Part shown: positions 4,950 through 59,878 of the stretch, piece after piece
Layout: each line of letters begins with the position of its first letter
Numbering within the stretch: the first letter of the stretch is position 1
NCBI GenBank assembly: GCA_964454135.1
Contig: CAYVQL010000001.1
Location: 84,977-148,976, forward strand
Direction of reading: 5' to 3'
Length of the DNA: 64,000 nt
DNA from: an uncultured Enterobacterales bacterium
GTDB lineage: Bacteria > Myxococcota_A > UBA796 > JAFGLY01
Position numbers and translations under genes: made by a program
Notes under the pieces: generated by a model
Told to the model about the DNA's origin: nothing
Databases searched by the model: none
The model's input: the letters and a program-made list of their open reading frames with translations, nothing else

Positions 4950-6321
4950 GCACCTGGGGCTGCGCCTGTTCTTGACCCTGGGCCTGCTGCTGATCTGCTT
5001 CGAGCTGCTGGTTTTCACGCAGAACACGCGCGCCGCCGATCGCATCCGGGTCAAGATCGTCGAGGCCGACCTGCAGTGGATGCTGCGCAGTGGCGACCTG
5101 GAGCGCTGCGACGCGGATCCGGCGGCCTGGGAGGCGCCCCTGTCCGGGCTGGGGATGGTGTACACCCTGGACGAGAGCGGCCGGCCCCACAATCCGCAGG
5201 CGCCCCTGCAGCAGGCCTTTGCCAACGACGTGGAGCCGGGCCAGCTGGTCAAGCAGGGCGCCAAGGTGCACTGGCTGGGTTGGACCGGGGTCTACGCCCT
5301 GGCACGGCAGGCGGCCGAGGCGCCCTGCCGCAGCTTCCTGATCGTGCAGCGACACATGATGGGGGTGGACACGCACCTGTTCTGGTGGATCGCCTTGCCG
5401 CGCTTCGTGCTGGGGCTGGCCATCGTCTGCCTGACCTGGTGGTTCGTGGTCCGTCCCTTGCTGCAGCGCATCCACGTGCTGGCCGGGCGCACCTCCACCA
5501 TCGTGGAGGCCGATTTCGAGGGGCAGCTGCCCGTGGGTCGCGGCGACGAGATCGACCAGCTGGCCGTGGCCTTCAACCGGGCGGCGGCCGCGGCCCGCGA
5601 GCGCCTGGAGCGGCTGCGCAAGCAGGACAAGCTGACCCGCGAGGTGATGGCCAACATCGCCCACGACGTGCGCACGCCCCTGGCGGCCCTCAAGCTGGGC
5701 ACAGGGCGGCTGTTGGCGGATCAGCCCCAGTCCGAGGTGGGGCCCACGGTGCGCTCCGAGCTCAACTACCTGGACAGCCTGATCGCCAACCTGGGCACCC
5801 TGGTGCAGCTGGAGGGCACGACCCTGCCCCTGGTGCGCCAGAAGCTGGACGCTTGCGCCCTGGTGAATCGCTGCCTGGCGCGCTTCGAGATGGTGGCCGC
5901 GGGGCGCGGCGTGGAGATCAACGGCGCCACGCCCGACGATCCGCTGCACTTCGCCGGCGATCCCCTGGCTGTGGAGCAGGCCCTGGGCAACCTGGTGCAG
6001 AACGCCACCGACTTCGCCAGCGGCAACGTGGCCCTGGTCTGCTTCGAGGAGCAAGGGAGCGTGGTCTTCTCGGTGCAGGACGACGGGCCCGGCCTTGAGA
6101 TCGGCGAGATCCCGCGCCTGTCCGAGCGCAGCTACCGCGGCATCGCCAGCCACTCGCGCGGCCGCAAGGGCCTGGGACTGGGCCTGGCCATCGCCGACGA
6201 GGTGGCGCGACGCCACGGAGGCGAGCTGATCTTCGACTGCCCCGCCGAAGGGGGAACGCGCATCCGCCTGCGCTTTCCGCGCGGGCTCTCGCTACGGATG
6301 GACACCTACCACTGGGAGTAG
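4942..6321 (+). CDS. Sensor histidine kinase (two TM helices, HAMP, HisKA and HATPase_c domains).
   Basis: H-box ANIAHDVRTPL, N-box GNLVQNATDFA, G-boxes DDGPGL and GLGLGLAI. Translationally coupled to the response regulator. Confidence 0.9.
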   Translation: MLKHLGLRLFLTLGLLLICFELLVFTQNTRAADRIRVKIVEADLQWMLRSGDLERCDADPAAWEAPLSGLGMVYTLDESGRPHNPQAPLQQAFANDVEPGQLVKQGAKVHWLGWTGVYALARQAAEAPCRSFLIVQRHMMGVDTHLFWWIALPRFVLGLAIVCLTWWFVVRPLLQRIHVLAGRTSTIVEADFEGQLPVGRGDEIDQLAVAFNRAAAAARERLERLRKQDKLTREVMANIAHDVRTPLAALKLGTGRLLADQPQSEVGPTVRSELNYLDSLIANLGTLVQLEGTTLPLVRQKLDACALVNRCLARFEMVAAGRGVEINGATPDDPLHFAGDPLAVEQALGNLVQNATDFASGNVALVCFEEQGSVVFSVQDDGPGLEIGEIPRLSERSYRGIASHSRGRKGLGLGLAIADEVARRHGGELIFDCPAEGGTRIRLRFPRGLSLRMDTYHWE

Positions 6322-6324
6322 TCG

Positions 6325-8136
6325 TCAGGAGCTCTCGGCGTTGAGCAGGCGCTGCTTGACCTGGGCGGCCATGCGCGCCGGGTCCGCCTCGTGGGTGGCG
6401 GTCCTTGCCAGGGCCTCCAGGATGGCGCGGGCGTTGCCCACGTTCTCGCTCGCGGCCAGCAGCCGTCGGAAGACCTGCAGGATGGTGACTCGCGGCAGGC
6501 GATCCAGGTCGCGGTAGACGGCGGGGCACTGGGCGCGCAGGGGATCCAGAGCCTGTTTCAGCTCTTCCAGGCCGTAGAGCTCGTGCCCCTGCTGGCGCAG
6601 CAGGCGGGCCAGGTGGGTGGCCAGCACGCCGGCTGGGTCCGTCACCTCGAAGCCCTGGGCCCGGGCCGCCAGCACGGCGGTAGCGGGGATCCACCAGGCA
6701 TGCTGGCCGAAGACCGGATCGCGGGCCTCTTCGCCCTGGGGAGGCTCGTGCTTGCAGCGGCCGGGCAGGGCAAGCCATCGATCGGATGGGATGCAGCCCG
6801 TTGCGCAGGGCTCGCCCCAGAGCAGCAGACGGTAGCAGTCGCCGGCCAGGTGCAGGTTGTCGCGCACGTGCAAGGGGGGCACCCGCAGGCCCCGCTCTCC
6901 GAGGATGCGGTCTCGCAGCGCGGCGACCCGTCCCAGCAGGGCGGCTTCCTTTTCCACCAGGCGCACCAGGTCCACGCCCAGCTCCATGGTCAGCGGCGGC
7001 ACCTCGGGCACGGTGGCCCGTTGCGGAGCTCGCTTCCTGGCGCGACCGCGCAGCGCTTGCTCCAGCTTGGAGCCGCTGGGGACGGTCACCGTGATGCCGG
7101 AGGAGCGCTGGCGGCTGCTGGGTGCGTGGGGGGCTGGCGGTGCGCTGGGATCCGGTACCAGGCCATCGGCGGTCAGCGTGCCCACGCGCTGCAGCTGGGC
7201 GTCGGGCAGCAGCTCGGCGGTGGAGAGAACGGTGATGTCGGGGTGGCAGCGGCGCACGGTGACGGCCAGCCGCCAGCGAGCCGGCGGGTCGCTGAGCAGC
7301 ACGGCCCGAGTCGGCAGCTCGGCCAGCGTCTCCAGTCCGTGGCAGATCCTTTCTCGTTCCTCCTCGCTCAGGGCCCCTCCGTCGGCCATGCGCAGGATGA
7401 TCGCCTTGGCTTCGTCGCTGAGCTCGGCGCAGTGAAGTACAGCCTTGTCGTCGCTGAAGCGGCTGGTGATGTGGCGGGCCAGCCCCTGCCGCACGCGCTC
7501 GGTGAGCGCCTCTTCGCTGGCTGGCCAGCCCATGAGCAGGGATTCCAGGATGGCCCGCGAGTTGCGGATGGTCAGCCCCTCGCGCAGCAGGTTGCGCAGC
7601 ACGGCCAGCAAGGTGGAGGGCGGCACGCCCTCGCGGTCCAGCTGGCGCACCAGCTCGGGCTCCCGGGCCGCGCAGCGGCGCAGCAGGTCTTCTACGTCGG
7701 CCAGGTCGTAGAGGTCGGGCAGCAGGGCCAGCTGCAGCTCGGTGCAGTGGGTCGTGAGCACGGTGGCCGGTTCGACCACGGTATAGCCCCTGGCTTGGGT
7801 GCTGAGGCGCTCCGACTCCGGGATCCACTGGGCCGGCAGGCCGAAGACCGGCTCCCTGATCACCTCACCTGTGATGGTTTCGTCGAGAGCGTCCGGATCG
7901 ATGGCCAGCCACATGTCCGCGCGCAGGCGGCCCCGACCCACCTCCATGCCCGCGATCAACAGGCGATAGCTGTCGTGGGGCAGGTGCGGGTCGCTGCGGA
8001 TGGCATTGCTGGGAAGCAGCACGCCCTCTCTGCGGGCGATGCTGCCGCGCATGCGCCGCAGCCTGTCCGCCAGGTCCTCCCCCTTCTCGAAGCTGGCCAG
8101 CAGGGCCTGTCCGAGCTCGATGTCGAGGGATTCCAC
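6325..8136 (-). CDS. Soluble protein made of two tandem FlhA/SctV (FHIPEP) C-terminal cytoplasmic domains, with no N-terminal membrane export-gate domain.
   Basis: Copy 1 (about aa 5-330) and copy 2 (about aa 405-603) each carry the FlhA-C signature blocks: V/IRDNLxL...YRLLIxG, FGLPAxWI, GYTVVEP...THxTEL, and VLRNLLREGLTIRNSRAILE / VFRRLLAASENVGNARAILE. The copies are joined by a Pro/Ser-rich linker. No hydrophobic segments. An AT-rich promoter lies upstream. Confidence 0.8.
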   Translation of the reverse strand: MESLDIELGQALLASFEKGEDLADRLRRMRGSIARREGVLLPSNAIRSDPHLPHDSYRLLIAGMEVGRGRLRADMWLAIDPDALDETITGEVIREPVFGLPAQWIPESERLSTQARGYTVVEPATVLTTHCTELQLALLPDLYDLADVEDLLRRCAAREPELVRQLDREGVPPSTLLAVLRNLLREGLTIRNSRAILESLLMGWPASEEALTERVRQGLARHITSRFSDDKAVLHCAELSDEAKAIILRMADGGALSEEERERICHGLETLAELPTRAVLLSDPPARWRLAVTVRRCHPDITVLSTAELLPDAQLQRVGTLTADGLVPDPSAPPAPHAPSSRQRSSGITVTVPSGSKLEQALRGRARKRAPQRATVPEVPPLTMELGVDLVRLVEKEAALLGRVAALRDRILGERGLRVPPLHVRDNLHLAGDCYRLLLWGEPCATGCIPSDRWLALPGRCKHEPPQGEEARDPVFGQHAWWIPATAVLAARAQGFEVTDPAGVLATHLARLLRQQGHELYGLEELKQALDPLRAQCPAVYRDLDRLPRVTILQVFRRLLAASENVGNARAILEALARTATHEADPARMAAQVKQRLLNAESS

Positions 8137-8364
8137 GGTGCTGCCCTCCTTGGAGGATGCCCGGTGGGGGTGCGCGGCGGATTGCAGGATTCCAGGCTAC
8201 CACCACTCGGTGGCCTTCGGGAGTCGGTGTCAATGAAAATGGTATCAAAAAAGGTAGAATCGTTGGATTTCCGTTGTCTTGAGCGGCCCATGGGAAAAAA
8301 AACCGGGGCGCGGGGAATGGATGCGAGCCTGTCCCGTACTGACGGGTGAAAGGAGCGTGGAACG
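8137..8364. promoter_or_regulatory. AT-rich divergent promoter region between the tandem-FlhA-C gene and the PLDc_N-like gene.
   Basis: Local GC drops sharply (caatgaaaatggtatcaaaaaaggtagaatcg, then an A8 run). No ORF. Confidence 0.5.
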
Positions 8365-8583
8365 ATGGAAACGCATCAAATTGCACTCATGGCCTGCGCT
8401 GGCGTCAGCGCCATCGCGGTTCTCTTCCTGCTGGTCAAGGCTGTACGCTGGACAGGCCGCGACGCCAGGAGGCGTGGCTTCCGCCCGGTCTGGCTGCTGC
8501 AGCTGCTGGTGGTGCTGGAGTTCCCCTGGCCCTGGCTGGTGTACTACCTGGTGACCCGCAACCTGGATCGGCAGCGGGCTTGA
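8365..8583 (+). CDS. Small two-TM membrane protein, PLD-nuclease N-terminal (PLDc_N)-like.
   Basis: 72 aa with two hydrophobic helices. The RPVWLLQLLVVLEFPWPWLVYYLVTRN segment resembles the PLDc_N consensus (KxLWLLVILLxPxIGPxLY). A promoter-like AT-rich region lies upstream. Confidence 0.5.
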   Translation: METHQIALMACAGVSAIAVLFLLVKAVRWTGRDARRRGFRPVWLLQLLVVLEFPWPWLVYYLVTRNLDRQRA

Positions 8584-32869: not shown

Positions 32870-33958
32870 TCAACCCTGGCGCGCCTGGATGGCCATCAGC
32901 TCGTCATCGCGCGTTTGGGCCGAGATGGCCCGCTGGGCGTAGAGCTGTTGCAGGTGCTCGCGGTAGGTCACACCTGCTTCCGACTTGCTGGTGTAGATAT
33001 TGAGCTTGCCCAGCTCGCCGGCGCGCAGCACCGTGCGGATGGCCGTGGTGGGGAAGATCACCTCGGCGCCCAGCACGCGGCCGCCCCGAATGCCCGGCAG
33101 CAGGCGCTGTGTGATGATGGCCGAAAGCCCCGAGGCCAGCGAGTAGCGGATGCGCGCCTGGTGGTCGCTGTGGATCGAGCCGATGACCCGCGCCATGGTG
33201 GAGATGGTGTCGTCGGCGTGCATCGTGCTGATCACCAGGTGCCCCATCTCGGCGGCCTTCAGCACCTGCTCGATGGTCTCGGGATCGCGCATCTCCCCTA
33301 CGTAGACCACGTCCAGGTTCTCGCGCAGGGCGGCGCGCACGCCGCCGGAGAAGGAGTCCACGTGCATGCCCACCTCGCGCTGGATGAACATGCCCTTGTG
33401 ATCGTGGAAGATGTACTCGATGGGATCTTCCAGGGTGAGCAGGGTGGCCGGGCGCGTGCGGGCGATGTGGTCCAGCAGGGCCACGGCGGTGACGGTCTTG
33501 CCCTGGCCCGTGGCGCCGGAGATCAGCACCAGGCCGTGCTTGAGCGACATCAGCCGCGGCAGCAGCTTGGGCGGCAGACCCAGCTCCTCCAGGGGCATGA
33601 TGTCCTGGGCGATGCGGCGGATCACGGCGTAGATGCCGTTGTTGGCCATGCCCACGTGCACGCGGTAGCGATTGGTCGCCTCGGCGTGCACCAGGTCCAC
33701 CTCCCGCTTGACCCGGAAGCGGTCCAGATCGCTCTGAGTGAAGAAACAGGCCATGAAGTGGCGCAGGTGCTGGTCGGTCAGCGGGTCGGTCTTGATGCGG
33801 GTGATCTGGCCGTCGATCTTGAAGATCACCGGCTCGCCGACCTTGAGGTAGAAATCGGCGGCGTTGGCCTCTTCCATCCAGAGCAGGGTGTCGCGGACAC
33901 TGACCGTGCGTTCGGCCGAGCGGAGGAAGGGCTTTCTGTAGGCTTTCATGTTGGCCAT
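32870..33958 (-). CDS. PilT/PilU-family type IV pilus retraction-type ATPase paralogue.
   Basis: Walker A GATGQGKT, LTLEDPIEY, Walker B and Asp box VVYVGEMRD, His box HLVISTMHA. GGAGG RBS ahead of the ATG at 33958. The rest of the 1337-aa ORF is rejected. Confidence 0.85.
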   Translation of the reverse strand: MANMKAYRKPFLRSAERTVSVRDTLLWMEEANAADFYLKVGEPVIFKIDGQITRIKTDPLTDQHLRHFMACFFTQSDLDRFRVKREVDLVHAEATNRYRVHVGMANNGIYAVIRRIAQDIMPLEELGLPPKLLPRLMSLKHGLVLISGATGQGKTVTAVALLDHIARTRPATLLTLEDPIEYIFHDHKGMFIQREVGMHVDSFSGGVRAALRENLDVVYVGEMRDPETIEQVLKAAEMGHLVISTMHADDTISTMARVIGSIHSDHQARIRYSLASGLSAIITQRLLPGIRGGRVLGAEVIFPTTAIRTVLRAGELGKLNIYTSKSEAGVTYREHLQQLYAQRAISAQTRDDELMAIQARQG

Positions 33959-34054
33959 CTCACCCTCCGACGAATTGGCTGCGAAGCGATCTGCTATCAC
34001 GAAACGGGGTCCTGTCGCTCCGGTTATGGGGGCCGTCCTTCCCAGGGGTTGCCC

Positions 34055-35488
34055 ATGCCCGAGACCATTCTTCGTCGTTTTCGCCAGGTCGCGCCCACGG
34101 TCGATTATTGCGCGCTGCGGCTGGTGGAGGAGCAGGGCGAGGCCCTCACCGTGCGGCGCGATGTGCTGCAGCCTGTCCGCAGCGCACAAGAACGGGGCGC
34201 CATGATCACGGTCCACCACGGCGCAGGTGCTGGCTACGCGGCCACCAGCGATCTGAGCGTCGCCGGGCTGCGGCGGGCGGCGCAGCGGGCCGCCGAGTGG
34301 GCGCAACGCAGCGCAGCGCACTCGGTGATCGACTTCTCGGCCATTGAGATGCCGCGACCCGTGGGCTCGTACCAAGCAAGCGAGGAGCAGCCCTGGTCGG
34401 ACCAGCCCCTGGCCGAGCGCGTGGCCATGTTGCTGCAGCGCAGCCGCAGCCTGCGCATCGACGAACGCATCGTGGACTGGTCGGTCTCGCTCTGGCGCGT
34501 GCGCCACGAGACCCTCTTCGCCACGGCCGATGGCGGACTGGCCCAGCAGGGCTTGAACCTGGTCACGCCGGAGATCCGGGCCGTGGCCAGCGCCGGCGGC
34601 GACGTGCAGAAGCGCACGCTGGGGGGCTCGGGCATCTCGCAGCAGGGCGGGCTGGAGGTGCTGGACCGCGTGGGCTTCCATCGGGCTGGGCCCGAGCTGG
34701 CCCAGCAGGCTCTGGAGCTGCTCTCGGCGCCCGATTGCCCCTCGGGCACCATGGACCTGTTGCTGGCCCCGGACCAGATGATGCTGCAGGTGCACGAGTC
34801 CATCGGCCACCCCCTGGAGCTGGATCGCATCCTGGGCGACGAGCGCTCCTACGCCGGCACCAGCTTCGTCAGCCTGGACATGTTCGGCAGCTACCGCTAC
34901 GGCAGCCGGCTGCTGAACATCACCTTCGATCCTGGCGACCCCCACGAATTTGCCAGCTACGCCTTCGACGACGAGGGCAGCCAGGCGCGGCGGGTGCACA
35001 TCATCCGCGACGGCCTGCTGGAGCGCCCCCTGGGCGGCGTCATCAGCCAGGCCAGGGCCGGCCTGCCCGGCACGGCCAACAGCCGAGCCCAGAGCTGGTA
35101 TCGCCCACCCATCGACCGCATGGCCAACCTGAACCTGGAGCCGGGCGATTCCAGCTTCCAGCAGCTGGTCTCGCAGGTGGAGCGCGGCGTCTTCATGCGC
35201 ACCAACGCCTCCTGGTCCATCGACGACTCGCGCAACAAGTTCCAGTTCGGCTGCCAGCGGGCGCGCCTGATCCGCGACGGCCAGCTGGGCCAGGTCGTGA
35301 AGAATCCCAACTACCGCGGCATCTCCGCCACCTTCTGGCGCAACCTGAAGGGCGTGGGCGACCGCAGCACCTACGAAGCCCACGGCACGCCCTGGTGCGG
35401 CAAGGGCGAGCCCAACCAGATCATTCGCGTGGGGCACGCCGCGCCGGTGGCGCTCTTCGGCGCTGTCGATGTCTTCGGGGGGGCCTGA
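34055..35488 (+). CDS. tldD: TldD-family metalloprotease.
   Basis: HESIGHPLELD zinc motif and overall TldD/PmbA fold signature. Start at the ATG at 34055. Confidence 0.85.
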   Translation: MPETILRRFRQVAPTVDYCALRLVEEQGEALTVRRDVLQPVRSAQERGAMITVHHGAGAGYAATSDLSVAGLRRAAQRAAEWAQRSAAHSVIDFSAIEMPRPVGSYQASEEQPWSDQPLAERVAMLLQRSRSLRIDERIVDWSVSLWRVRHETLFATADGGLAQQGLNLVTPEIRAVASAGGDVQKRTLGGSGISQQGGLEVLDRVGFHRAGPELAQQALELLSAPDCPSGTMDLLLAPDQMMLQVHESIGHPLELDRILGDERSYAGTSFVSLDMFGSYRYGSRLLNITFDPGDPHEFASYAFDDEGSQARRVHIIRDGLLERPLGGVISQARAGLPGTANSRAQSWYRPPIDRMANLNLEPGDSSFQQLVSQVERGVFMRTNASWSIDDSRNKFQFGCQRARLIRDGQLGQVVKNPNYRGISATFWRNLKGVGDRSTYEAHGTPWCGKGEPNQIIRVGHAAPVALFGAVDVFGGA

Positions 35489-55196: not shown

Positions 55197-55324
55197 GGGC
55201 GCGAATAGACGGGAATTCTGTGGTGGAACCGCCGAAAGAGTTGGGAGAAGGTGCTGAAGGCTCGTTCTGTGAAGCTGGCGGGGCTTCCGCTCTCCCTGCC
55301 TCTTTCGCTTCCTGGTGATATATC

Positions 55325-55342
55325 TGTATCGTAAACGATACA
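55325..55342. promoter_or_regulatory. 18-bp AT-rich palindrome TGTATCGtaaaCGATACA immediately upstream of the rtcR start; candidate operator or activator-binding site.
   Basis: Perfect 7-bp arms with a 4-bp spacer. It sits in an unusually AT-rich 40-bp patch (GATATATC also present) 15 nt before the rtcR ATG. Confidence 0.35.
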
Positions 55343-55356
55343 TCTGGATAGTGTCC

Positions 55357-57006
55357 ATGTCCGTACGCAAGCCCCTGGTCGTCTTCGGCATGCTGGGCAC
55401 GCGCCTGGATCAGGGGCGACGGGCGCGCCGCTGGACCAAGTGGCGTCCCACCGTCTGCGCCGTGCAGCAGCCCGAGCTGCCCGTGGCGCGCTTCGAGCTG
55501 CTCTTTCCGCCCGACCACCAGGGCCTGGCCAAGGGCGTGGCCGACGACATGCTGCAGCTGCGCCCCCATATGGAGCTGCAGCTGCATCCCTTCCCGCTGC
55601 GGGATCCCTGGGACTTCGAGGAGGTCTTCGGCGCGCTGCTGGACTTCGCCCAGGCCACGGACTTCCAGCCCGAGCGCGAGGACTACCTGCTGCACATCAC
55701 CACGGGGACCCACGTCTTTCAGATCTGCTGCTTCCTGCTGGCCGAGTCGGGGCATTTCCCGGCCCGCTTGCTGCAGACCGAGCCCCTGCGCCCCCCACGC
55801 GGGCCCGATGGCAAGCGCCAACCCGATCCCGGCCGCGCGCGCGTGATCGACCTGGATCTTTCGCGCTACGACGCCATCGCCGCCCGCTTCTCCGAGCAGC
55901 GGCGCGACGCCCTGTCCTTCCTCAAGGCCGGCATCGACACCCAGAACAAGGCCTTCAACGCGCTCATCGAGCGCATCGAGCGCGTGGCGCGCGCCTCGCG
56001 CGATCCCATCCTGCTGATGGGCCCCACCGGGGCGGGCAAGACGCGCCTGGCCAGCCGCATCGCCGAGCTGAAGCTGCGCCTGCAGCAAGGGGCCAGCGGC
56101 CAGTTCGTGCAGGTCAACTGCGCCACGCTGCGGGGCGACGCCGCCATGTCGGCCCTGTTCGGCCATGTGCGCGGCGCCTTCACGGGCGCGCTGCAGGAGC
56201 GAGCCGGCCTGCTGCGCAGCGCCGACGGCGGCGTGCTCTTCCTGGACGAGATCGCCGAGCTGGGGCCGGACGAGCAGGCCATGCTGCTGCGGGCCATCGA
56301 GAGCGGGCGCTTCACGCCCCTGGGCAGCGACCGCGAGGTGCGCAGCCGTTTTCAGCTGATCGCTGGCACCAACCGCGACTTGCAGCGCGCCGTGGCCGAG
56401 GGGCGCTTCCGCGACGACCTGCTGGCGCGGCTGGACCTGTGGACCTTTCACCTGCCCGGCCTGCGGCAGCGGCCCGAGGACATCCCCCCAAACCTGGACT
56501 ACGAGCTGAACCGCATCACGCGCGAGACGGGCCGGCGCGTGACCATGAACGCCGAGGCCCGGGCGCGCTTTCTGGAATTCGCCTGCTCCGCCCAGGCCAG
56601 CTGGAGCCGCAACTTCCGCGACCTGAACGGCGCCATGCGCCGCATGGCCACCCTGGCCGAGGGCGGACGCATCGACCAGGGACAGGTGGAGGAGGAGATG
56701 GCGCGGCTGCTGCGCGCTTGGACGGTGCCCGGCGCCAGCGCGCAGCCGGATGTCCTGCGCCGGCTGCTGGGCGCGGAGCGCCTGGCGCAGCTTGACCGCG
56801 TCGAGCAGGTGCAGCTGGCCGAGGTGGTGGCCGTCTGCGGCCGCAGCGCGAGCCTGGCGGCCGCCGGACGAGCCCTCTTCGCCGCCTCGCGCCAGCAGCG
56901 CCGCAGCGTCAATGACGGCGATCGCCTGCGCAAGTACCTGGCGCGCTACGGGCTGAGCTGGGCTGGGCTCAATCCGGAGGCTCCCTCAGCGCCGACGTCA
57001 CCGTGA
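55357..57006 (+). CDS. rtcR: RtcR-family sigma-54-dependent transcriptional activator (N-terminal CARF-like sensor domain, AAA+ sigma-54 interaction domain, C-terminal HTH).
   Basis: N-terminus VVFGMLGTRLDQGRRARRWTKWRPTV (RtcR/CARF-type). Walker A GPTGAGKT. Sigma-54 contact motif GAFTGA. Walker B LFLDEI. C-terminal DRLRKYLARYGLSW. Confidence 0.85.
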   Translation: MSVRKPLVVFGMLGTRLDQGRRARRWTKWRPTVCAVQQPELPVARFELLFPPDHQGLAKGVADDMLQLRPHMELQLHPFPLRDPWDFEEVFGALLDFAQATDFQPEREDYLLHITTGTHVFQICCFLLAESGHFPARLLQTEPLRPPRGPDGKRQPDPGRARVIDLDLSRYDAIAARFSEQRRDALSFLKAGIDTQNKAFNALIERIERVARASRDPILLMGPTGAGKTRLASRIAELKLRLQQGASGQFVQVNCATLRGDAAMSALFGHVRGAFTGALQERAGLLRSADGGVLFLDEIAELGPDEQAMLLRAIESGRFTPLGSDREVRSRFQLIAGTNRDLQRAVAEGRFRDDLLARLDLWTFHLPGLRQRPEDIPPNLDYELNRITRETGRRVTMNAEARARFLEFACSAQASWSRNFRDLNGAMRRMATLAEGGRIDQGQVEEEMARLLRAWTVPGASAQPDVLRRLLGAERLAQLDRVEQVQLAEVVAVCGRSASLAAAGRALFAASRQQRRSVNDGDRLRKYLARYGLSWAGLNPEAPSAPTSP

Positions 57007-57427: not shown

Positions 57428-58288
57428 CTACCAGGCCGCGCTCAGGCCCATCATGGGGGTGCCGTCCGTCGAGACCGCGCTGCTGACGACCAGGCGCTCG
57501 CTGCGGTGCAGCTCGGGCACCAGGATGCCCACGCCGGCCCCCAGCAGGCCGCCCACCATGACGTCCGTGGGGAAGTGCTTGTGGGCTCGCACCCGCAGGG
57601 CGCCGGTCCAGACGGTGATGCCCGCCGCTCCCAGGTAGGGCAGCGCCTCCAGCTGCCAGGCCCAGTCCTGGGTGATGCCCAGCGTATGGGCCAGGGCGAA
57701 GGACCAGGCGCCGGCGGTGGAGGTGTGGCCCGAGGGGAAGGAGAGCTGGGCTTCGCAGTCCACGGGTTGGTCGTTGGCGACGGCTTCGTCGTAGGCGGCG
57801 CGCCACTCCTCACTGTAGGCGAAGGGCCGCGGGCGGCGCACGGCGTGCTTGACGAGGTGGGTGATGTTCTGGCTGATGGTGATGGCCTCCAGGCCCACCA
57901 CGGCGTAGGTGCCGGAGCGGGCCAGCCGGGCCCGGCCGCTGTCCGCAGTCCGCAGCAGGCCGTAGGCGCCCAGCACCAGGGGCAGGGCGTAGCTGGGGTA
58001 GATGCCCGTGATGTCCGAGAGCAGATCCGGCCCTTCGCCGTCGATCTCGGACAGCCCGGCGTAGCGCGCGTCCAGCCCCAGCTCGGGCTCTCCCGGGGGG
58101 TTCTGCTCCACCCAGGGCGACTCGCCGCCGAACATGGTGGCGAAAGTGTAGGCGCCGGAAAACAGCGCCACCGGGGCGTCCGTCCAAGGATTCAGGCGCA
58201 GGTCGGGCTCGGGCTCGCTCGCGGGCTCGGCCGCCATGGCCAGGGCAGGACAGAGCAGGAGGGCGAGTGAAAGAAGGAGAAGAGGCAT
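57428..58288 (-). CDS. Secreted PAP2-superfamily phosphatase.
   Basis: Signal peptide MPLLLLSLALLLCPALAMA. PAP2 motifs KHAVRRPRP, PSGH, SRVRAHKHFPTD. Confidence 0.8.
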   Translation of the reverse strand: MPLLLLSLALLLCPALAMAAEPASEPEPDLRLNPWTDAPVALFSGAYTFATMFGGESPWVEQNPPGEPELGLDARYAGLSEIDGEGPDLLSDITGIYPSYALPLVLGAYGLLRTADSGRARLARSGTYAVVGLEAITISQNITHLVKHAVRRPRPFAYSEEWRAAYDEAVANDQPVDCEAQLSFPSGHTSTAGAWSFALAHTLGITQDWAWQLEALPYLGAAGITVWTGALRVRAHKHFPTDVMVGGLLGAGVGILVPELHRSERLVVSSAVSTDGTPMMGLSAAW

Positions 58289-58429
58289 GGCACACCTTGG
58301 AGGGGCGTCGAGCCGCGCCGCCATGGACACCGGCGGCTCGAGCGACACCAACGTAGCGCGGCCGTCCAGCCGAATCCCGGGGTCTGCTACACTCGTTCTC
58401 CCCTCCTGGCCCATCCCGAGGTCAACGCC

Positions 58430-59878
58430 ATGCTCGCCCTGTCCGCCCTGCTCGCGCTCTCCCTCGTCCCCGACGCCGCGGCCCTGGAGGACGAGTCGCT
58501 GCGGGCCCGCAGCTCTTTCGGCTTGTTCCGCGATCCCTACGACTATTTCGCCCAATCCGCCTGGCTGGTGCGCCAGCCCGGGCGTCACCTGTACACCGTG
58601 CTGGCCGAGCCCGGCGAGCAGGGCTGGCTGGGCGGCGGCTACCTGGGCCCGGTGGGCTTCGGCGTGCTGGCGACCCGCGTGGGCGGCGCGCTGAGCAGCC
58701 AGCGCGTGATCGACAGCCAGGTGGCGCCCAAGCGCGAGTCCTTCACCGAGAGCTATCTGGAGCACCGCCAGCTGCAGGCCTCCCTGGGGTGGGGCATCCC
58801 GGTCAACGAGCGCCTGGCCGTGGGCGTCGGCCTGGACGCCGCCTTCCTGCGGGAGCGCTACTCCCTGGCCGCCGATGCCGAGTCCGGCGTGAGCCTGCTG
58901 GGCGACACCCACGAGAGCCTGGAGGAGGGCGTGCAGGTGGCGCTTGATGGGGGCTCGGCCACGTTGGACATGCGGCGCATCGGCGGGTCGGTGGGCCTGG
59001 CCCTGGGCAGCCCCGAGGAAGGGGGCGTGGAGATCGGCGTCACGCTGGCGCAGCGCAGCGCGGTCCCCACCGCAGAAGCCGGGGTCGCGGACCAGGACGA
59101 GGAGAGCGGCGAGTTCACGAACTCCTACGCCTACGAGGGCTACTACCCGGATGCGGGCCTACAGGTGAACCATGTCATCTGGCTGCCCGGTCTGCGGGCG
59201 GACGGCTTGGTCCCGGTGGGCGAGCGGGCGGGCTTGAGGCTGATGGCCGAAGCCCAGGGAGGCAAGGGCCGACCGGCGCTCTACTCGGCCACCGAGGCCT
59301 TCCTGCAGGACGGCGCCTGGCTGGTGCGCGAGGAGCGCATCGAGAACCCCTGGCTGGGCGTGCTGGACATGAACCTCCTCGTGGCGCTGCAGCTGCAGCG
59401 CGAGGCGCTGGCCTTGCGCGTAGGCCTGCAGGGGCGGGCCGATCTGACCACCTGGTGGCTGGACAGGATCGTCTACGAAGACGAGGAGCTGCAGCAGAAC
59501 GACAGCTACCAACAGCTGCAGGCCGACGATCGCTGGAGCATGAGCCTGCCCCTGGTACTGGAGAGCGCGCTGACCGAGCGCTGGACCCTGCGCTGCGGCG
59601 CCCGCTTCACCTTTCTCTACGACTACTGGGAGGATCGTGACGGCAGCGCCGAGGGCGACGTCATCGTCGAGCAGAGCGCCACCAGCTCCTACGCCGACCT
59701 GGCCCTGGGCCTGCGCTTCCAGCCCCACGAGGCGGTCACCCTGGAGACGGCCTTTGCCGGGCGCGGATCGGCCTGCGATCCGGACGCCGAGAACCTGCAG
59801 CTGGGAGAGATCTGCCAGGGCCAAGCCCTGCAGCTGGATCTCTCCAGCGTCTCCATCAGCGCCGTCTTCCACCTCTGA
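58430..59878 (+). CDS. Secreted protein, probably an outer-membrane beta-barrel.
   Basis: Signal peptide. Alternating amphipathic beta-strand pattern. C-terminal ...SISAVFHL. Confidence 0.5.
   Translation: MLALSALLALSLVPDAAALEDESLRARSSFGLFRDPYDYFAQSAWLVRQPGRHLYTVLAEPGEQGWLGGGYLGPVGFGVLATRVGGALSSQRVIDSQVAPKRESFTESYLEHRQLQASLGWGIPVNERLAVGVGLDAAFLRERYSLAADAESGVSLLGDTHESLEEGVQVALDGGSATLDMRRIGGSVGLALGSPEEGGVEIGVTLAQRSAVPTAEAGVADQDEESGEFTNSYAYEGYYPDAGLQVNHVIWLPGLRADGLVPVGERAGLRLMAEAQGGKGRPALYSATEAFLQDGAWLVREERIENPWLGVLDMNLLVALQLQREALALRVGLQGRADLTTWWLDRIVYEDEELQQNDSYQQLQADDRWSMSLPLVLESALTERWTLRCGARFTFLYDYWEDRDGSAEGDVIVEQSATSSYADLALGLRFQPHEAVTLETAFAGRGSACDPDAENLQLGEICQGQALQLDLSSVSISAVFHL

Follow-up and report, generated by a model that had tools for sequence, protein, structure and literature searches.

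Can the cytoplasmic domain of a flagellar export gate lead a life of its own, away from the membrane? This question is raised by a gene on the reverse strand, at positions 6325-8136, of the 64-kb stretch of contig CAYVQL010000001.1 that was analysed here (hereafter the window). FlhA is the export-gate protein of flagellar type III secretion. Its membrane part, FlhA-TM, consists of 8 helices (residues 1-327 in Salmonella), and its cytoplasmic part, FlhA-C, covers Salmonella residues 362-692 (structures PDB 3A5I, 6CH1-3 and 3MIX). Sorting in type III secretion, by flagella and injectisomes alike, centres on FlhA-C and SctV-C as its platform, and to our knowledge all current models treat them as a membrane-tethered nonameric ring. 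The protein encoded at 6325-8136 consists of two FlhA-type C-terminal domains, one complete and one lacking subdomain D4, which are held together by a disordered basic tether of about 50 residues. The following features carry the analysis (aa, amino acids; nt, nucleotides).

6325..8136, reverse strand: gene running from the GTG start (8136-8134) to the stop codon (6325-6327), product a soluble tandem FlhA-C protein of 603 aa
7171..8136, reverse strand: unit 1, complete FlhA-C with D1-D4, aa 1-322 (from profile, PDB, AlphaFold 2 and Foldseek)
7021..7170, reverse strand: linker between the units, aa 323-372 (from composition, low model confidence and motif check)
6328..7020, reverse strand: unit 2, D1-D3 only, without D4, aa 373-603 (from profile, structure alignment and AlphaFold 2)
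8145..8151, reverse strand: Shine-Dalgarno sequence AAGGAGG, 8 nt upstream of the GTG, read from the sequence

An intact gene for two FlhA-type cytoplasmic domains

The gene encodes a protein with a predicted mass of 66 kDa. Its GC contents at codon positions 1, 2 and 3 (0.76, 0.49 and 0.89) show the pattern of a real gene within a window of 70% GC, and the long open reading frames (ORFs) that overlap it in other frames display an antisense or off-frame GC pattern. An in-frame stop lies 20 codons 5' of the GTG with no alternative start codon in between. The N-terminus is therefore fixed and cannot reach into a membrane domain, and the start codon falls exactly at the boundary of the FlhA-C domain. 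Identical DNA of the gene was obtained from three independent assemblies (two in ENA, from different samples, and one in Logan), which rules out an artefact of assembly or gene calling. The same protein was also recorded by JGI and, on a 149-kb contig, in an NCBI assembly, the NCBI record (P0388) differing solely in how the start codon is written. None of these independent records (ENA, Logan, JGI, NCBI) supplied population variants of the gene for a ratio of non-synonymous to synonymous substitution rates (dN/dS). The 603-aa ORF of the original prediction is thus borne out by the frame itself, its GC pattern and the Shine-Dalgarno sequence, and represents an intact, independently translated gene for a cytoplasmic protein.

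When the whole protein was scanned, the Pfam family FHIPEP (PF00771) was matched in two stretches with 325.9 bits (E = 7.5e-97), which exceeds the gathering threshold of 29.1 bits. Residues 1-324 scanned alone matched positions 331-656 of the 657 positions of the model (E = 3.6e-56), and residues 325-603 matched positions 322-553 (E = 2.6e-40). The C-terminal half of the model was accordingly found twice, and its N-terminal half (positions 1-321) remained unmatched. The two halves of the protein also aligned with each other (E = 8e-33, 38% identity across 197 aa), and over the 223 shared columns of D1-D3 the identity between unit 1 and unit 2 was 34.5%. Since the units resemble each other to this extent only, the duplication either dates far back or has evolved fast, and it is conceivable that the units came from two different FlhA-C sources.

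Unit 1 begins 8 residues ahead of the conserved glycine (G368) of the GYxLI motif. It was aligned end-to-end with FlhA-C of Bacillus, Helicobacter and Salmonella (E = 1e-34 to 1e-39), the best PDB match being 3mix (E = 2e-39), and corresponds to residues 362-690 of Salmonella FlhA. Unit 2 corresponds to residues 362-582 of 692 and thus lacks the last 100 residues or so, which form D4. Saijo-Hamano et al. (in 2010) are said to have set the D3/D4 boundary of Salmonella FlhA at about 583/584. All the best PDB matches of both units were FlhA.

Structure prediction with AlphaFold 2 gave the same picture. In the full-length model, the predicted local distance difference test (pLDDT) was above 90 for residues 1-330, below 50 for residues 339-379 and between 60 and 90 for unit 2. 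When unit 2 was modelled from a separate alignment, 203 of its roughly 228 ordered residues reached a pLDDT of at least 90, and the first 51 residues of that fragment stayed below 50. The predicted template modelling score of the monomer (0.60) indicated no confident packing between the units. Using Foldseek, unit 1 was superimposed on Salmonella FlhA-C with a TM-score of 0.85-0.89 (target-normalised), and unit 2 on D1-D3 of FlhA-C with a root-mean-square deviation of 2.4-2.6 Å over about 218 columns; the deviation of both units from Salmonella FlhA-C was 2.4-3.1 Å. The linker, in which 8 proline, 7 alanine, 7 serine and 6 arginine residues were counted among 50, has an isoelectric point of 11.7 and is predicted to be disordered. 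The isoelectric points of unit 1 (5.1, acidic) and unit 2 (7.9, near neutral) differ as well. No membrane segment was found anywhere in the 603 residues, the maximum 19-residue Kyte-Doolittle hydropathy being 0.9. Hydropathy, profile scans and PDB alignment thus uphold the original prediction of a protein without transmembrane (TM) segments that is built from a full D1-D4 unit, a Pro/Ser-rich linker and a D1-D3 unit; the AlphaFold model and superposition that it had proposed as a check match both units to the FlhA-C fold.

The NCBIfam model of FlhA (TIGR01398) was matched with 347.2 bits, below its equivalog cutoff of 772.1 bits, and the model of SctV (TIGR01399) with 141.3 bits against a cutoff of 692. 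Since the FlhA score (347 bits) stands against only 141 bits for SctV, both units are, as judged by profile score, of the flagellar (FlhA) and not of the injectisome (SctV) type. The protein belongs to FHIPEP at the level of the domain, yet it is not an FlhA/SctV export-gate protein, because it lacks the membrane domain and the FlhA-L linker motif, stays below the equivalog score and has none of the expected gene context. Compared with FlhA, both units share the sequence and fold of FlhA-C, and unit 1 has the four subdomains, the dimple and the groove. Unlike FlhA, the protein has neither the 8-helix FlhA-TM nor the E351/W354/D356 motif of FlhA-L, it carries the cytoplasmic domain twice per chain, the second time without D4, and its gene lies outside any flagellar cluster. 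With SctV (YscV/InvA/MxiA/EscV/CdsV) it shares the fold of the C-domain (Foldseek E = 1e-16 to 1e-19) and the Pfam model. The identity to SctV-C structures is, however, about 20%, a much weaker resemblance than to FlhA, and here too the membrane domain is what the protein lacks.

Docking dimple, receptor groove and linker motif

Conservation was assessed against 154 full-length FlhAs, in which 55 columns of the C-domain are conserved at 85% or more, 49 of them in D1-D3. Real FlhAs hold 73-100% of these columns (mean 93%). Unit 1 retained 47 of the 55 (85%) and unit 2 retained 38 of the 49 (78%). Because the invariant columns are mostly kept although the overall identity is only about 43%, the pattern of substitutions shows what appears to be divergence under FlhA-like structural and functional constraint, not neutral decay.

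In real FlhA, the export chaperones FlgN, FliS and FliT are bound by a hydrophobic dimple at the interface of D1 and D2, with the core residues D456/F459/T490 (PMC8166844). At the dimple positions L438/I440/P442/D456/F459/V482/T490, unit 1 displays L/I/P/E/F/V/T; all of these are canonical, as D and E both occur at position 456 in the family. The corresponding residues of unit 2 are L/L/G/D/F/T/T, the D/F/T triad being kept. F459 corresponds to F98 in unit 1 and to F476 in unit 2. The D1-D3 groove that receives FlhA-L of a neighbouring subunit comprises R388/R391/K392/K393, F400/L401, L512 and R515 (PMC5916509). It is preserved in unit 1 as far as in the closest FlhAs: R391, V400/L401, L512 and R515 are kept, and K392/K393 are replaced by G/S at positions where the closest real FlhAs also lack the lysines (Q/N and Q).

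Ring formation needs E351/W354/D356 together with residues 328-351 (PMC5916509). In Salmonella, where FlhA-C is a monomer in solution, this region is required for the cooperative formation of the nonamer and for binding of FliJ (PMC8166844, PMC5916509), which also binds the cleft between D4 domains (PMC8166844). Moreover, Salmonella FlhA-L competes with the chaperones for the dimple and thereby controls substrate switching (PMC8166844). FlhA-L (residues 328-361) is absent from unit 1, in which just 8 residues precede G368. The segment ahead of unit 2 has A/R/T where the family has E351, V, L or I (at the W354 position) and D or E (D356). Both the lost FlhA-L and the inequality of the tandem units speak against a homo-nonameric ring formed by the protein itself.

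Relatives, host and surroundings

No orthologue was found among about 15 billion proteins in all, either by word-indexed search of 5.8 billion protein clusters, by exhaustive HMMER search of 1.84 billion representatives or by a scan of 185,579 species genomes (GTDB). The protein is a lineage-specific singleton. The next-best match (P0121) scored 254 bits, compared with 1322 bits for the protein against itself, and is a contig-end fragment of an ordinary flhA. Two Leptolinea loci from the GTDB scan turned out to be full-length ordinary flhA genes with a chance match to one peptide pattern, and P0072, P0079 and P0119 are fragments, either N-terminally truncated or garbled, in which part of the membrane domain remains.

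The closest full-length relatives (P0002-P0009, P0010 and P0033) are flagellar FlhAs of 685-725 aa, encoded in flhA-fliA-flgG-flgI-flgJ-flgM-fliC-fliD-fliS clusters. Over the 223 columns of D1-D3, their identity is at most 46% to unit 1 and at most 43.5% to unit 2. Of the closest FlhAs, six were traced to their samples, and none of these came from the samples of the protein studied here. The contigs of the P0002 clade have a GC content of 0.70 like the window, and their tetranucleotide correlation with it is 0.95-0.965, the 7-kb chunks of the window itself correlating with one another at 0.97-0.99. Because of this match in GC and tetranucleotide pattern, a kinship of the host with flagellated bacteria is probable, and NCBI labels some of these Myxococcota. 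For a PmbA/TldD-family protein of the window, the best homologue is about 62% identical and the named matches span several phyla; the host is a poorly sampled high-GC lineage. Upstream of fliC, at a distance of about 100 nt, four loci of flagellated relatives (L013, L015, L016 and L005) carry a conserved sigma-28-like motif, TAAC-N16-(G/T)CCGAAGA, of which L018 and L019 have the variant TAAA-N16-TCCGATGT. The TAAC-N16-(G/T)CCGAAGA motif is absent upstream of the gene at 6325-8136.

Other proteins with FlhA-C and no TM segment were surveyed, as the original prediction had proposed, by local domain analysis of 267 retrieved matches (from HMMER, the best 150 of 3,472), and both tandem and fusion proteins were found. 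P0130 (895 aa, encoded at 32-2719 on the forward strand of L009, on a contig of 39% GC) has the architecture FlhA-C-HEAT-FlhA-C-HEAT with two full units and no TM segment; its start codon is preceded by an in-frame stop at a distance of 18 nt. P0156, a protein of 652 aa assigned to a 'Deltaproteobacteria' bin, contains a partial and then a full FlhA-C unit, again without TM segment. Both resemble the protein studied here as soluble tandem FlhA-C proteins and differ from it in the order and completeness of the units. P0124, P0128 and P0186 (loci L022-L025) have a novel N-domain of about 115 aa in common (BLAST E = 1e-10 to 1e-5 among them), followed by a full FlhA-C and likewise TM-less. A different common N-domain (E = 7e-25) precedes FlhA-C in P0127 and P0209. 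P0172 (825 aa) joins a TIR domain and a Ser/Thr protein kinase to a full FlhA-C. PADLOC matched the kinase domain only, and the protein looks like a signalling or immune-type protein in which FlhA-C could serve as sensor or adaptor. In-frame stops just upstream indicate complete N-termini for P0130, P0156, P0124 and P0128. In P0253, P0192 and P0135, FlhA-C is joined to a C-terminal fragment of FlhB, an N-terminal fragment of FliF or a CTP synthase; such entries could reflect fusion by deletion, flagellar loci in decay or chimeric assembly.

The identity of these TM-less proteins to the two units is 19-39%, below that of canonical FlhAs. A first neighbour-joining tree had placed the two units together with the soluble paralogues, a grouping that was rejected as long-branch attraction given its bootstrap below 50% and the lower identities. 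As no grouping reached a bootstrap of 50% and identities are 19-39% only, we read the TM-less FlhA-C proteins as what look like independent inventions and not one family. The original prediction knew of no characterised protein made of FlhA-C only or of duplicated FlhA-C. This holds for the literature, in which our searches brought up no paper on FlhA-C proteins that are TM-less or tandem, nor any for the sample accessions; the architecture itself is not unique, since P0130 and P0156 are present in databases.

The contigs of P0124 come from the same sample series as the protein studied here (SUTE22-1 / SRR8062323). Their GC content of 59% and a tetranucleotide correlation of 0.78 rule out a common genome and indicate a different organism. 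An orphan 336-aa protein with FliG_C and an N-terminal coiled coil is encoded 2.3 kb from the P0124 gene (L022, 4359-5369, and L023, 4293-5303, both on the reverse strand), where it adjoins an IS66 transposase.

Within the window, the following further features were defined.

8137..8364, reverse strand: intergenic region upstream of the gene, about 58% GC with one 50-nt stretch of 40%, shared with the divergent 72-aa ORF
8365-8583, forward strand: 72-aa hydrophobic ORF, a gene in public assemblies, no Pfam or PADLOC match
32870-35488, reverse strand: T2SSE ORF, 872 aa as scanned, T2SSE domain at residues ~615-798, large N-terminal part unannotated
55315-57006, forward strand: RtcR-type sigma-54 activator (RtcR + Sigma54_activat)

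Downstream, the gene converges with a two-component system composed of an OmpR-type response regulator and a HAMP histidine kinase. The histidine kinase gene ends at 6321, which leaves a gap of 3 nt to the stop codon at 6325-6327; the coordinates agree with the convergent 3-nt spacing described in the original prediction, and there is no evidence of a functional link between the two. Upstream, the 300 nt before the gene have 59% GC compared with 70% for the genome, one 50-nt stretch falling to 40%. On the strand of the gene, no sigma-70 consensus was found in this region, no sigma-28 or sigma-54 match rose above the shuffled background, and no Rfam family was matched. Of the AT-rich promoter claimed for the gene, the relative AT-richness therefore stands, while no recognisable sigma-70, sigma-28 or sigma-54 promoter accompanies it; presumably the promoter lies in this intergenic region.

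Besides the two units, no FlhA-C-like sequence was detected in the window. Searching all its frames by tblastn with four FlhA membrane domains gave a best E of 0.8. An upstream frameshifted exon for the membrane domain, which according to the original prediction would have pointed to a broken gene, is thus not present, and a disrupted full-length flhA was ruled out by the lack of a TM remnant in any frame of the window and by the in-frame stop just upstream. The window also encodes Ser/Thr kinases (one of them 1.6 kb from the gene), VWA/VIT, PKD/FGE-sulfatase/RCC1 and TIG proteins, hydrolases, a radical-SAM enzyme, a T2SSE-type ATPase, an RtcR-type activator, an amylase and others. PADLOC-DB 2.0 returned no match for the tandem protein, its 72-aa and 243-aa neighbours or the histidine kinase, and only generic kinase-domain models for the nearby kinase. 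As a whole, the ORF at 32870-35488 failed the filter on GC at the third codon position, so that its gene boundaries are uncertain. The ORFs at 57428-58912 (reverse strand) and 58430-59878 (forward strand) both have coding-like GC at that position and overlap on opposite strands by about 480 nt; one belongs to the PAP2 family and the other has no Pfam match, and one or both must have a wrong start or be miscalled.

Possible function and its alternatives

Because the dimple is retained but the linker motif of the nonamer is lost, work away from the gate is the most likely mode for this protein. We tentatively favour, at clearly less than even confidence, a soluble off-gate binder that would take up complexes of export chaperones with their substrates and serve as a sink or regulator. 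The decoy or regulator role suggested in the original prediction is plausible, with indirect support from the intact dimple of unit 1, which would dock complexes of the FlgN/FliS/FliT type. Having lost the ring-building motif, the soluble protein would form no ring and would operate at a distance from the export gate, where it could be a sink, a holding platform or an adaptor for chaperone-substrate complexes. In this way it could tune the flow of late substrates to the FlhA ring proper, in a flagellar or related type III machine whose genes would lie in another part of the genome, and unit 2 might provide a weaker or re-specialised second binding head. In this model, what the protein binds, how it acts on export and that the host has a type III machine at all are inferences. 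The partner switch of FliS, flagellin and FliW is a cytoplasmic control of how chaperone-bound late substrate reaches FlhA-C (PMC6070490). It serves as a functional comparison only, for the hypothesis on the mode of action, and has no sequence or structural relationship to the tandem protein.

Several observations weigh against the off-gate binder. No flagellar, chaperone or type III secretion system (T3SS) gene was recognised by Pfam in the 64-kb window, where tblastn with 16 flagellar proteins from the loci of relatives gave a best E of 0.06. No sigma-28-type promoter precedes the gene, though the flagellin genes of relatives carry a clear one. Unit 2 is altered in the dimple (P442G, V482T) and in the groove (L401R, L512A, R515P). 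A singleton, the protein offers no record of its architecture being kept in evolution and no basis for dN/dS. Finally, long ORFs persist by chance in DNA of 70% GC, so that intactness alone is weak evidence.

The absence of flagellar context in 64 kb and of a sigma-28 promoter would also fit a more radical change of use, in which the FlhA-C fold has become a general binding module or scaffold with a non-flagellar role, in a host without flagella or with a non-flagellar T3SS. Elsewhere, FlhA-C has more than once been joined to soluble modules that are unrelated to it (HEAT repeats, TIR with protein kinase and two novel N-domains), which shows it to be reusable outside the export gate, and non-flagellar T3SSs are known from Myxococcota (PMC12248157). 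Such an exaptation is a possibility that we consider rather doubtful, for unit 1 keeps the whole flagellar dimple and the receptor groove for FlhA-L, which would be unexpected if the partners had been abandoned, and both units are clearly of FlhA and not of SctV type. The gene could also be a relic, a duplicated flhA fragment free of selection whose reading frame survives since stops are rare at 70% GC. Its status as a singleton without orthologues, alone in its gene neighbourhood, the truncated and partly degenerate unit 2, the many spurious 600-aa ORFs in the window and the TM-less entries that look like deletion fusions (FlhB-C + FlhA-C, FliF-N + FlhA-C) would all agree with decay. We nevertheless regard a relic as unlikely: substitutions avoid the family-invariant positions, 85% and 78% of which are kept at about 43% overall identity, AlphaFold 2 folds both units confidently, the strong Shine-Dalgarno sequence, the start exactly at the domain boundary and the coding-type GC at codon positions are those of a working gene, and no remnant of a membrane domain lies nearby.

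The residues of the groove suggest yet another mode, in which unit 1 would accept the FlhA-L of a real FlhA without having a linker of its own to pass on, and would so cap or poison the FlhA ring. R391, V400/L401, L512 and R515, which belong to the site described in PMC5916509, are kept in unit 1, the E351/W354/D356 motif of the protein itself is absent, and the competition of FlhA-L with chaperones for the dimple, by which Salmonella controls switching (PMC8166844), would be in line with such capture. As this idea rests purely on residue conservation and K392/K393 are G/S in unit 1, though the closest real FlhAs lack them too, capping appears quite unlikely, and with it a docking onto or intercalation into the nonamer that would block completion of the ring or the switch from hook to filament. 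The start precisely at the FlhA-C boundary and the fully canonical unit 1 could further be explained by a split FlhA, with a TM-only gate gene elsewhere and the tandem protein supplying the cytoplasmic ring in trans. This is very improbable, given that FlhA-L, needed for tethering and activation of the gate and for ring formation (PMC8166844, PMC5916509), is missing, that a D4-less tandem unit misfits a 9-fold ring of identical subunits, and that no TM-only flhA or flagellar gene occurs in the window. The TIR-kinase-FlhA-C fusion of P0172 and the Ser/Thr kinase gene 1.6 kb away could hint at a component of anti-phage defence or of an immune-like system with FlhA-C as sensor; since PADLOC gave no match for the protein or its neighbours beyond generic kinase models and no effector domain is present, we give this explanation next to no credence.

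What the protein means for the family depends on which of these accounts applies. As a lineage-specific relic it would be of minor interest, a curious case of a gene decaying in a high-GC lineage with poor sampling. Somewhat doubtfully, it may be seen as the first soluble two-headed FlhA-C 'decoy', a cytoplasmic regulator that would control a type III export machine by mimicking the docking platform of the gate, the TM-less FlhA-C proteins elsewhere representing the same regulatory principle invented independently. With similar reserve, such a decoy might titrate the complexes of chaperone and substrate, or it might take the linker of a neighbour in the FlhA ring, give none in return and so cap the ring. 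This rare architecture is real, a new variant within a known domain family and not unique in kind. For specialists, a natural soluble double FlhA-C is surprising and experimentally tractable, even with similar uncharacterised proteins already in databases. If functional, it would offer a natural, monomeric reagent with two sites for studies of chaperone recognition, and cells could regulate the order or flux of export via a free copy of the docking site. The repeated fusion of FlhA-C to HEAT, TIR-kinase and novel N-domains suggests that its uses beyond the export gate are wider than has been recognised.

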